This document shows, piece by piece, positions 19,158-37,695 of a stretch of 64,000 nucleotides of DNA (the first letter of the stretch is position 1; each line of letters begins with the position of its first letter). The translations under genes were made by a program, and so were the position numbers. Source of the stretch: Acidobacteriota bacterium (GTDB lineage: Bacteria; Acidobacteriota; UBA890; WLXD01); contig CAXWPH010000014.1 in the NCBI GenBank assembly GCA_963666055.2, forward strand, positions 384,001-448,000, read 5' to 3'. A model generated the notes under the pieces. The model was given only the letters and a program-made list of their open reading frames with translations. It did not search any database and was not told where the DNA came from.

Positions 19158-21836
19158 ATGGAACCCGGCACCAAACTAGGCCCCTACGAAATCACCGAGC
19201 AGCTCGGTGCAGGCGGCATGGGAGAGGTGTACCTGGCGCAGGACACGCGGTTGGGCCGCAAGGTGGCCATCAAGGTGCTGCCCGCCGAGTTCGCCTCTGA
19301 CCCCGAGCGCCTCGCCCGCTTCGAGCAGGAAGCCCGCGCCGCCGCCGCCCTGAACCACCCGCACATCGCAGCCGTTCACGATGTGGGCGTCGAGGACGGC
19401 ACCCACTTCATGGTGCAGGAGTACCTGGAGGGAGACACGCTCCGGGAGCCGCTGGGAAAGGGTGCGCTACCGCTCAAGAAGGCGCTCGGTCTGGCCACTG
19501 AGATTGCCGAGGCACTCGCTGCTGCACACGCCGCCGGGATCATCCACCGGGATTTGTAGCCGGAGAACATCTTCGTCACCAAGGAAGGCCACGCCAAGGT
19601 GCTGGACTTCGGCCTGGCGAAGCTCACCGAGGTGGCGGGGGCAGGCTCACCGGGCGGTGCAACACAGTCACCCACGATGATGGGGACGGTTGCTGGTCAG
19701 GTGATGGGCACCGTCGGCTACATGGCCCCGGAGCAGGTTGAGGGCTCCGACAAGATCGATCATCGGGCCGACCTGTTCGCTTTCGGCTGTGTGCTCTATG
19801 AGATGGCGACTGGAGATCGAGCATTCGCCGGGCGCAGCATCGCCGAGACGCTGGCACACATCCAGCACGATGACCCGCCGCCGATTCAGGATTCCGAGCA
19901 GTCTCTGCCCGACGAGCTGCAACGCATCGTACGCAAGTCGCTCGCCAAGGAGCCCGCCAAGCGTTACCAGACAGCCGGCGACCTGGTCGTCGACATACAG
20001 GCGCTCGGTACAGACGTGGAGTCAGGTGCGGCACTTCCGGCAACCCCTGTCGCCCAGGACACGACACGCGGCATCCCCTGGAAGCTGGCAGCCCCTGTGG
20101 CCAGCGCCCTTCTGGCAGCTTTCGGAGTCTGGGTCACGACCCCGTCGCCGCCTGAGTCCATCGTTCGCCGCTTCTTCATCGACCATCCACCAGAAGCTAC
20201 TTTCCAGATGATTTCCACCCTCGGTGTTGCAATCTCACCCGATGGCAAGTCGGTGGTATTCAACGCCAACCGGCAGCTTTGGCTCCGAGCGATTGACGAT
20301 CCGGTAGCCACACCCATCCGTGGCACGGAGGGAGCCACAGTGCCGTTCTTTTCACCCGATGGCCAACAGCTCGGCTTTTGGGGAGGCGACGGCCAGATCA
20401 AGAGCGTTTCGATCACCGGTGGTACGCCGGTGTTGCTGGGGCCAGCGCCTGTGCGTGCCTACGGGGCGAGCTGGGGAGATGACGGCTACATCTACTTCGG
20501 GCAGGGTGCCGGAGGGATCTTGCGTGTCTCAGACAACGGCGGTGAACCACAGCTAGTCGTTCAGATGGAAGAAAGCGAGCAGGCCCACGGCCCACAACTT
20601 CTTCCCGGTGGCGAGTGGTTGCTGTTTACGCTGGCGAGCGGCTCCAACTCGTGGAACGGGGCGAGCATTGTTGCGCAGCCGGTCTCCGGCGGCGAGCGCA
20701 AGAAGCTGGGCATTGTCGGCACCGATGCCCGCTACGTACCCACCGGCCACATCGTCTATTCGCTCGCAGGCAACCTGTTCGCGGTGCCTTTCGATGCAGA
20801 CAGCATCGAGATTACCGGAGGACCGGTGTCGATCGTCGAGGGGGTCCAACAAGCGACCGGCATCACGGGAGCAAGCCAGTACTCCTTTTCGGATCGCGGT
20901 GGGTTGGTGTACATGCCGGGTGGTAGCGGCGCTTACCAGCTCGCCTGGGTGGGTCGTAACGGTCAAGTCGACCCGCTGCCCTTCGAGCCGCGTTCGTCTC
21001 TCAACTTGGACCTCTCGCCGGATGGCCAGCGCATCGCGCTCGAAATCCAGGGAGATGATGGGGAGTCCGACATCTGGATCTACGAGGTCGAGCGAGGAGG
21101 CAGCCAGGTGGTGCTGACCACGGCGGGCAACAACCAACATCCCGTTTGGTCGCCCGATGGAGAGTGGGTTTTCTTCAGGTCGGATCGGAGCGGCAATAAC
21201 GACATCTGGAAGCGGCGGGCTGACCGGAGTCTCGACGCCGAGCTGGTGTTGGATACAGAGGCTCCCGTCTCACCGTCGTCGATCTCGGCGGACGGTGCGG
21301 TGCTGCTGTTTGACAGCGGGGTCTTATCGAATCTCGACGTGGGGTTACTGGCTCTCGATACAGATCAGGAGCCGGAAATGCTCCTCGCTACCGCCGCCGA
21401 TGAGGACAGAGGCGATTTCTCGCCGGACGGTCGCTTCTTCGCCTTCCGGTCGAACGAGACCGGACAACCCTCGGTGTATGTACGGGAAGTGTCGAGCGGT
21501 CGGACATTTCCGGTCTCTACGAGTACCCGTGGTGGTGGTTACCCTCGCTGGTCGCGGGATGGAAGGGAGATTTACTACGGCGCCCTCGGAGCTGGTGGCA
21601 TCCTGGTTGCGGAAGTGACGATGGAGCCGTTTTCAGCATCCGACCCTCTCGAACTCTCAGCCACCCGCAGGCGTCGCTTCGTCAACTTCGATGTCACCGC
21701 CGATGGACAGAGGTTCCTGGTGACGGTGCCCGCTGGTAGTGATGAGACTGGCGCGCCGGCATACGGCACACGACTCAACGTCGTCCTCAACTGGTTCGAG
21801 GAATTGAACCGGCTAGTGCCGACGGGCGGCTCCTGA
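19158..21836 (+). pseudogene. K1: Ser/Thr kinase-TM-PD40/TolB-like beta-propeller protein with an in-frame TAG at 19557-19559
   Basis: [35 protein letters not shown] repeats; both ORF-track pieces are in the same frame. Confidence 0.9.

Positions 21837-37695: not shown

Follow-up and report, generated by a model that had tools for sequence, protein, structure and literature searches.

Results

A lineage-specific island of kinase-propeller genes

We analysed a window of 64,000 nucleotides (nt), corresponding to positions 384001-448000 of contig C14 in a genome of 5.73 Mb (here G000; 15 contigs, about 64% G+C). Positions 19158-37695 of this window hold five genes, K1 to K5, every one with Pkinase and PD40 domains (Pfam), and the taxon labels of closely related proteins were Acidobacteriota. 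K1 and K4, the subject of this work, are broken members of a family in which a predicted Hanks-type Ser/Thr kinase (Hanks-type motifs and a Pkinase domain including the Gly loop were found) is followed by a transmembrane (TM) helix and a double propeller. The features are listed in Table 1. The 20-kb island that contains them was missing from the syntenic site in all three congeners fetched for synteny (G002, G003 and G004). In G003, degP adjoins the HD-GYP gene directly with nothing between, and G002 carries another insert of 8.8 kb there, pieces of which match elsewhere in G000. Two of these pieces match directly behind family tails, and the insert also has a 79-nt kinase remnant.

K1 to K4 are all broken, K1 by a stop codon and the other three by frameshifts. 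For the K1 stop codon, a single-base nonsense change appears to be a simpler reading than read-through. The K4 frameshift falls after the APE motif. In K5 (35122-37695) the stretch from the kinase C-lobe to the TM helix is unusually short, and an in-frame deletion is possible.

Table 1 Features of the kinase-propeller island (window positions)
Feature	Positions	Strand	Basis or remark
Island of five kinase-propeller genes and cargo, between degP and an HD-GYP/GGDEF gene	18170..37950	.	Lineage-specific; synteny comparison
Orphan 3' tail fragment of a family gene (NWFDEL motif and stop)	18954..19014	+
Promoter-like TTGGAT-N17-TAGGCT, common to family starts	19096..19124	+	Putative function
K1: Ser/Thr kinase, one TM helix, two six-bladed TolB-like propellers; in-frame TAG	19158..21836	+	Pfam Pkinase and PD40, structure model, fold search
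K1 block A, kinase start to DFG	19158..19628	+	Homogenised across family, 88-94% nt among 10 paralogs
TAG replacing the catalytic-loop Lys codon of K1 (HRDL*PEN)	19557..19559	+	Sequence; database protein P0001 of 745 amino acids reflects the same
K1 blocks B and C, activation segment and late C-lobe	19629..20015	+	Nearest paralog i6, 91-94% nt
K1 block D, juxtamembrane anchor	20016..20101	+	i6-like to f15-like switch at 20015-20025
Predicted TM helix of K1	20079..20141	+	Kyte-Doolittle 19-residue window 1.71
K1 propeller 1, type P1a	20148..20921	+	83-89% nt to c15, f15, h5; 53% to type P1b
K1 propeller 2, ectodomain residues 259-520	20922..21707	+	Has 21 of 22 positively selected codons
K1 conserved tail (RLNVVLNWFEEL...), putative recombination anchor; strand likely closes propeller 1	21771..21836	+	Model, fold alignment, homogenised DNA spelling
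Stub of translationally coupled second kinase (TGATG overlap)	21836..21955	+	Homology stops near 21930
Cargo gene, no Pfam hit	22011..22592	+	Stub, cargo and orphan tail duplicated behind i6 at 96.5%
Orphan tail fragment	22727..22787	+
K2: family member, different kinase type, frameshift near 24580	24223..26866	+	Pfam, sequence
K3: family member, frameshift near 28530-28560	27289..29975	+	Pfam, sequence
K4: kinase-TM-double propeller, +1 frameshift near 33031-33034	32431..35122	+	Pfam, K1/K4 alignment
K4 blocks B and C	32902..33280	+	96-98% nt to paralog f15
K4 block D, juxtamembrane anchor	33281..33366	+	f15-like to i6-like switch at 3' end or just after
K4 TM and propeller 1, type P1b	33368..34225	+	90-93% nt to a13, b15, g5, i6
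K4 propeller 2 and tail	34226..35122	+
K5: coupled second kinase, different PD40 ectodomain, stop-free	35122..37695	+	Pfam, sequence
Orphan leader and kinase start fragment, right end of island	37722..37869	+

K1 and K4 consist of alternating matching and divergent blocks

The initial annotation had described K1 and K4 as patchworks of near-identical and divergent blocks, and alignment together with blockwise codon analysis confirmed the alternation and its positions. From the start to the DFG motif (block A, 19158-19628 versus 32431-32901) the two genes shared 96% of amino acids (aa) and 91% of nucleotides, with a synonymous divergence (dS) of 0.35. Divergence had been placed in the late C-lobe of the kinase; this segment (block C, 19812-20015) did diverge, with 51% aa identity and a dS of 1.29, but divergence begins directly after DFG, in the activation segment (block B, 80% aa, dS 0.88). 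The proposed juxtamembrane match of equal length (block D, 20016-20101 versus 33281-33366) proved to be 86 nt without a gap, with 89.5% nt and 86% aa identity and a dS of 0.23. It was followed by divergence across the TM helix and propeller 1 (block E, 20103-20936, 41% aa, dS 1.66) and by a further match from the QLAWV motif (20937 versus 34226) through propeller 2 and the tail to the stop (block F, 77% aa, 86% nt, dS 0.20), a block that combines a high nonsynonymous divergence (dN) with a low dS. As annotated, the match ran on past the stop into the TGATG-coupled following kinase start; it reached about 21930 in K1 and 35216 in K4, and behind K1 this start is merely a stub of about 30 codons. 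The description of the matching blocks as nearly identical was too strong, as they shared only 86-91% of nucleotides and were no closer to each other than to many other paralogs in G000.

At codons for the same residue, synonymous differences amounted to 32/147, 20/44, 16/33, 4/24, 68/110 and 26/222 in blocks A to F. The steps between blocks were significant in Fisher tests (A versus E, p 1e-10; E versus F, 7e-21; D versus E, 7e-5; C versus D, 0.023), so that dS, far from being uniform, changed sharply, by five- to eight-fold between blocks.

Each block has its own nearest paralogs

Searches with tblastn revealed 113 kinase-like loci in G000, 39 of them with a propeller downstream and 38 of those full length. 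By a crude cut-off of at least 840 aa, 22 of the 38 full-length kinase-TM-double-propeller genes had a stop-free frame and 16 looked broken. The family elements are spread over 47 clusters, and exchange was not limited to one tandem cluster. The search for donors within the genome, which the annotation had suggested, returned donor-like copies for each divergent block. The blocks of K1 and K4 had different nearest paralogs, the best partners sat on other contigs, and the divergent blocks matched elsewhere at 86-98% nt, in reciprocal combinations.

Sixteen genes were extracted, and block trees were built for the 10 in which kinase and propeller 2 are both of the K1 type (labels such as i6, at C6:267918, and f15, at C15:2110172, denote paralogs within G000). 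Among these, block A gave a star tree at the nucleotide identities of Table 1, block C fell into six types (54-70% between types) and propeller 1 into two, P1a and P1b (51-54% between, 83-93% within); b15 and d15 were identical in blocks B-E. The pairs sharing block C, K1/i6 (91%), K4/f15 (97%) and g5/h5 (96%), each bear opposite propeller-1 types, and all four combinations of C-lobe and propeller 1 were present in G000. In the approximately unbiased (AU) test, block C data rejected the block E tree (p 0.0013) and block E data rejected the block C tree (3e-86). A simple duplication, in which K1 and K4 stem from one copy and differ only by unequal protein constraint, would agree with the similarly low dS of blocks A and F. 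We regard it as next to impossible and refuted by the non-uniform dS and the four-way combinations: dS itself jumps between blocks, block F is high in dN at low dS, and the divergent blocks have their close matches elsewhere in reciprocal combinations.

In trio analysis, K1 followed i6 until about 20015-20025 and f15 afterwards, and K4 followed f15 until about 20060-20125 (K1 coordinates) and i6 afterwards. Since the ancestry of both genes flips at or just behind it, the juxtamembrane block is the main crossover zone, which accounts for the match between K1 and K4 in this block. Across paralogs, the left breakpoints scattered over about 19960-20130. K1 and i6 share the C-lobe and also, at 96.5%, the 1011 nt at 21801-22811, which contain the kinase stub, the cargo gene and an orphan tail. 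The ectodomain between is not shared and was therefore exchanged between two shared flanks. At the QLAWV junction, propeller 2 is preceded by P1a, by P1b or, in loci L023, L031 and L032, by one or more other types with 52-55% aa identity to P1a. G002 shares with G000 the combination of P1b with propeller 2, which was not found in G001, G003, G004 or G007; only five genomes were searched. Independently of G000, the congener G002 has the K1-type kinase with P1a as well as with P1b ectodomains.

The dS steps, the donor-like copies and the four combinations thus bear out the proposal of segmental exchange between conserved anchors. The picture of propeller 1 and the C-lobe being replaced as modules needs two amendments. 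K1 and K4 did not arise by one duplication followed by two swaps; each is a mosaic of different paralogs. In addition, most swaps took the whole ectodomain from the juxtamembrane anchor onward. The trees of propeller 1 and propeller 2 (E versus F) were close, with p values of 0.53 and 0.09 in the Shimodaira-Hasegawa test and 0.002 in the AU test. Propeller 2 looks to travel mostly with propeller 1, and exchange of propeller 1 alone looks rarer, as judged from these trees.

Agreement with short-read contigs

Short-read contigs from two studies, one run of which may be the source of the assembly, showed no differences over K1 (19733-20012 and 19958-20293), K3 (27891-29951, in each of the runs X1 and X2) and K4 (33084-33331 and 33313-33441). 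In the K4 frameshift region (32944-33063) contigs had 0 gaps in X1, X2 and X5; they hold only 30 letters on one side of the frameshift, and part of the depth lacks the extra base, possibly coming from the paralog f15. In RNA runs, the share of sampled sequence words present was at most 0.10. A patchwork made by mis-joining similar paralogs or strains during assembly appears very unlikely to us. The identical duplicated stretches in G000 (plus and minus copies on C8; b15/d15), the many frameshifted genes and the fragmentary short-read contigs at K1 and K4 would fit it. It is contradicted by the 3-15% nt by which paralogs differ in shared blocks, by the two-study contigs, which agree without a single difference with several of the junctions as well as with the frameshifts of K3 and K4, and by the independent P1a and P1b pairings in G002.

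Ectodomain structure and positive selection on the propellers

The model of the K1 ectodomain had a predicted local distance difference test score of 91.9. TolB (PDB 2ojh, 1c5k and 2hqs) aligned to ectodomain residues 258/259-520 with Z 28-31 and a root-mean-square deviation (rmsd) of 2.5-3.1 over about 250 residues, and single LRP6 propellers aligned from residue 262. Single propellers also aligned across residues 7-552. Because both align from residue 258-262, the break between blocks E and F at about residue 262-264 (QLAWV at 264) is, in this model, a domain boundary. A break within a blade was considered and dropped, as the structural alignments put the start of propeller 2 there, with a closing strand. 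The expectation that breakpoints coincide with domain boundaries thus held for the junction of the two propellers; the C-lobe breaks lie within the kinase domain. The tail strand (residues 542-547) likely closes propeller 1 in the model, which would explain the conservation of the tail. Propeller 2 shares its fold with TolB at merely 10-18% identity, a likeness that shows no function. The tandem propellers of LRP6 ranked next after TolB, and the two propellers could not be superposed as a pair (rmsd about 18).

Within G000, dN/dS was 0.09 for the kinase N block, 0.42 for P1a, 0.83 for P1b and 0.65 for propeller 2, based on non-duplicate copies (18 of 20, 5 of 6, 5 of 6 and 10 of 11 kept, respectively). 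Codon models were fitted with our own implementation, using naive empirical Bayes site assignment, a fixed tree and query-anchored alignments. For propeller 2, the comparison of M2a with M1a gave twice the log-likelihood difference (2dL) of 147, with 8.8% of sites at omega 5.6 and 22 sites identified; 2dL was 58 for P1b, 17 for P1a and 0 for the kinase control block, and neutral simulations with heavy recombination (n=14) reached at most 5.4. The five intact genes alone gave 80 for propeller 2; in other genomes 18 copies were found, and sixteen of these gave 249. The same 22 sites were hypervariable in these other genomes, with 7.2 residue types per site versus 2.5 elsewhere. These codon-model fits argue strongly for site-specific positive (diversifying) selection on both propellers. 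Of the propeller-2 sites, 20/21 fell on the D-A and B-C loop segments, which make up 105/266 residues (p 4e-8), the segments having been assigned from the strand list after the sites were seen and without coordinates. From standard propeller topology, we take these segments to be the ligand-binding top face. Propeller 1 had been suggested to set ligand specificity; since the strongest signal lies in propeller 2, on its presumed top face, specificity resting on propeller 1 alone is unlikely.

Recombination could be real and the variability of the propellers nevertheless reflect relaxed constraint in a decaying, redundant family that has no repertoire function. The broken state of K1-K4 and of 16/38 family genes, the 78 orphan fragments described below and an overall dN/dS below 1 are compatible with such decay. 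About 60-70% of propeller-2 sites, however, are at omega near 0.1 while 6-9% are at 4.5-8, and the signal persists when only intact genes are used and recurs in other genomes at these very sites, which lie on one presumed face, so that we consider relaxed constraint an unlikely explanation.

Anchors and orphan gene ends

The DNA of the anchors was homogenised. The rare codon CTA occurred at Leu7 in 45/54 starts, versus a usage of 4.8%, and tails encoding the same peptide had one DNA spelling in 14/21 cases; shared ancestry explains part of this homogenisation. The 45-nt tail and the start were conserved at the DNA level even in orphans. From 82 tail motifs, 3 unrelated ones were dropped, and 43 of the remaining 79 had no upstream propeller body and are orphan tails. 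Short kinase starts standing alone numbered 35, versus 63 full-length kinases. The orphan tails and starts are neighboured by cargo genes. The extents of orphan homology were scattered (5-214 nt and 78-486 nt) and, like the scattered breakpoints, are as homologous exchange predicts. At C2:361874-362012 an internal deletion fuses a kinase start directly to a tail. Another internal deletion, at C10:4657-5589, joins a whole kinase domain almost directly to a tail.

The promoter-like pattern was present upstream of 39/54 MEPG-type starts, and about half of its 78 occurrences genome-wide lie at those starts. Motif and leader are conserved before full kinases and orphan starts alike (19096-19157, 24154-24222, 27207-27288, 32349-32430 and 37722-37790), and orphan starts could act as portable promoters. 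Tails ending in PTGGS or similar overlap the next kinase start through TGATG (21834-21838 and 35120-35124), an overlap at a fixed 53-nt offset in many loci that suggests coupled receptor pairs. A semi-conserved noncoding stretch lies behind many tails.

A dedicated site-specific system, such as an integron-like system, a tail-targeting integrase or a diversity-generating retroelement, might also drive the shuffling or the variability. Conservation of tail and start in orphans, tails that recur tandemly behind cargo and tyrosine recombinase matches in at least three islands point in this direction. We nevertheless judge it quite unlikely, because the ends of orphan homology (possibly decayed) and the internal breakpoints are scattered, the 18170-37950 island has no integrase match, no tRNA was found in the window and the variation is not adenine-specific. 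A diversity-generating retroelement was rejected: the variable fraction at codon positions 1-2 was 0.36 for A, 0.34 for C, 0.31 for G and 0.24 for T, and variation was spread over five blades. No reverse transcriptase was present among the 34 window proteins scanned, the rest of the genome not having been searched.

Cargo and neighbouring genes

Cargo of the islands, from a Pfam scan of 84/125 island open reading frames (ORFs), consisted mostly of peptidases, amidohydrolases, amidases, sulfatases and oxidoreductases, with a few integrases. A defence-island reading was rejected, as PADLOC on 60 proteins gave hits to the kinase domain only and two stray hits, alongside the mostly hydrolase and oxidoreductase cargo. 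The hits of K4 and K5 to PD-T4-6, MADS and Mokosh were limited to the kinase domain, and no partner genes occurred among the 60 proteins. The lack of a tRNA in the window also ruled out a tRNA-anchored island.

The cargo at 30081-32066 is a FAD-dependent oxidoreductase with a 96% copy at C15:898269-900324 and many paralogs at 68-70%; these oxidoreductases are another expanded family moving with kinase islands. At C15:1029047-1031600 and C13:44378-45881, orphan tails stand in tandem about 0.7-1.4 kb apart with cargo between, resembling a cassette array. One ORF at L077:12563-14029 (C13) has PD40 propeller repeats fused to an N-terminal piece of a tyrosine recombinase and is likely a recombination scar. 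An inverted duplication of a kinase island (C8:28666-40835 and C8:55664-66942), with identical match scores and at a contig end, may be a repeat or an assembly duplication. Downstream of the island, 41189-58511 encodes several MacB/FtsX permeases, of which the whole genome has at least 37, as well as an HlyD protein, a protein with a CHAT domain and a subtilase whose ORF ends with a PadR domain.

Discussion

Taken together, K1 and K4 are mosaic members of an expanded family of predicted membrane receptor kinases, in which exchange at conserved anchors, likely by homologous recombination or gene conversion, and positive selection on the predicted ligand-binding top faces of both propellers would probably generate a combinatorial repertoire of sensors. 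The proposed anchors are the juxtamembrane block, the junction of the propellers at QLAWV and, at the two ends of the gene, the promoter with the N-lobe and the tail with the start that follows. Between these anchors, a double crossover or a conversion tract would pair the kinase C-lobe of one gene, the presumed output, with the ectodomain of another, the input; the donor DNA may come from elsewhere on the chromosome or from a related strain. Crossovers with only one anchored end, together with internal deletions, would leave orphan starts and tails and move neighbouring cargo between islands. A periplasmic peptide or protein would bind the top faces and activate the kinase, and decayed copies such as K1 and K4 may still be usable as sequence donors. 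As for the ligand, we give proteins derived from antagonists or neighbours an even chance; nutrient peptides are doubtful, and any other class is more doubtful still.

Several points weigh against this interpretation. The near-congruent trees of propellers 1 and 2 limit free shuffling at their junction, and the data do not separate intragenomic conversion from import out of related strains. No listed read contig bridges the propeller-1/2 junction of K1 or K4, nor the K1 TAG, and uncovered parts prove nothing. On the side of selection, apart from the home-made codon models and the face assignment made after the event, 2dL dropped from 147 to 45 (8 sites) for propeller 2, to 44 for P1b and to 9.6 for P1a when indel-adjacent codons were left out, so that the signal hangs in part on how the sequences are aligned around gaps; differences at 2-3 positions are frequent among the variable codons, and omega may be inflated. 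The mostly hydrolase and oxidoreductase cargo lends no support to an anti-phage role. Finally, 16/38 family genes look broken versus 8/37 MacB-FtsX controls (p 0.083); an excess of pseudogenisation in the family (22/38 versus 29/37 stop-free) was rejected as not significant.

Acidobacteriota are rich in kinase-PD40 genes, a largely unexplained group, and G000 shows how such a family varies. Input and output modules would be exchanged at defined anchors, with about 20 surface positions of propeller 2 under diversifying selection. The selected residues and the natural chimeras make up a short list for a ligand search, and the orphan ends suggest that genomic islands can be seeded by the very gene family they carry. 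More speculatively, and with less than even confidence, the lineage may keep a repertoire of non-self receptors with hypervariable faces and interchangeable outputs, broken copies serving as donors and gene ends as landing pads for cargo.

Comparison with known systems

The domain architecture is that of the Hanks-type Ser/Thr kinases with PD40/TolB-like propellers (PF00069 and PF07676) common in Acidobacteriota. Among the candidates scored, 6358/7998 were homologs, and those with taxon names were labelled Acidobacteria. Expanded Ser/Thr kinase paralogs are described for Candidatus Solibacter usitatus, where an averaged pairwise test found no positive selection in the kinase group (PMC3174227). 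The accessible portion of that report describes no module exchange in its group, which may or may not be of the PD40 type; the present family shows block mosaics and site-specific selection. A report of block exchange combined with surface selection in bacterial receptor kinases did not turn up in searches of open-access papers.

The K1/K4 family resembles three other systems and belongs to none of them. In the lpl cluster of Staphylococcus aureus, as far as the available text of that study shows, a conserved stretch inside each ORF is a site of homologous recombination, the 5' and 3' variable regions have incongruent trees and conserved units span adjacent genes (PMC2568036). The conserved internal DNA anchor with incongruent flanks recurs in the K1/K4 family. 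The lpl genes, however, encode lipoproteins, form a single tandem cluster and have a single, central anchor, whereas about four anchors and copies across many islands occur here, in a predicted signalling receptor whose exchange would pair kinase output with sensor input. The arrays of type VI secretion system (T6SS) and Rhs orphans, reported for Vibrio cholerae, were attributed in the consulted part of the source to homology-facilitated illegitimate recombination (PMC5361080). There, as proposed here, one-sided anchoring within conserved DNA gives rise to strings of orphaned gene ends, but the islands studied here contain no toxin/immunity genes, have orphans of both ends and carry mostly metabolic cargo.

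The pattern parallels that of eukaryotic non-self receptor families. The NWD family of Podospora anserina, with het-d and het-e, is reported, in the sections at hand, to combine exchange between members with positive selection that acts, in each repeat, on a few residues of the propeller's interaction surface (PMC1805685). Both are multi-gene families with exchange and selection on a propeller face, which in our case was assigned from topology and not from coordinates. The NWD proteins are cytosolic NACHT-WD40 proteins that exchange near-identical single repeats. In K1-K5, Pfam gave no NACHT hit and self-comparison no within-gene repeat match; their blades are divergent, and in this family of predicted membrane kinases it is whole propellers or ectodomains that appear to be exchanged.

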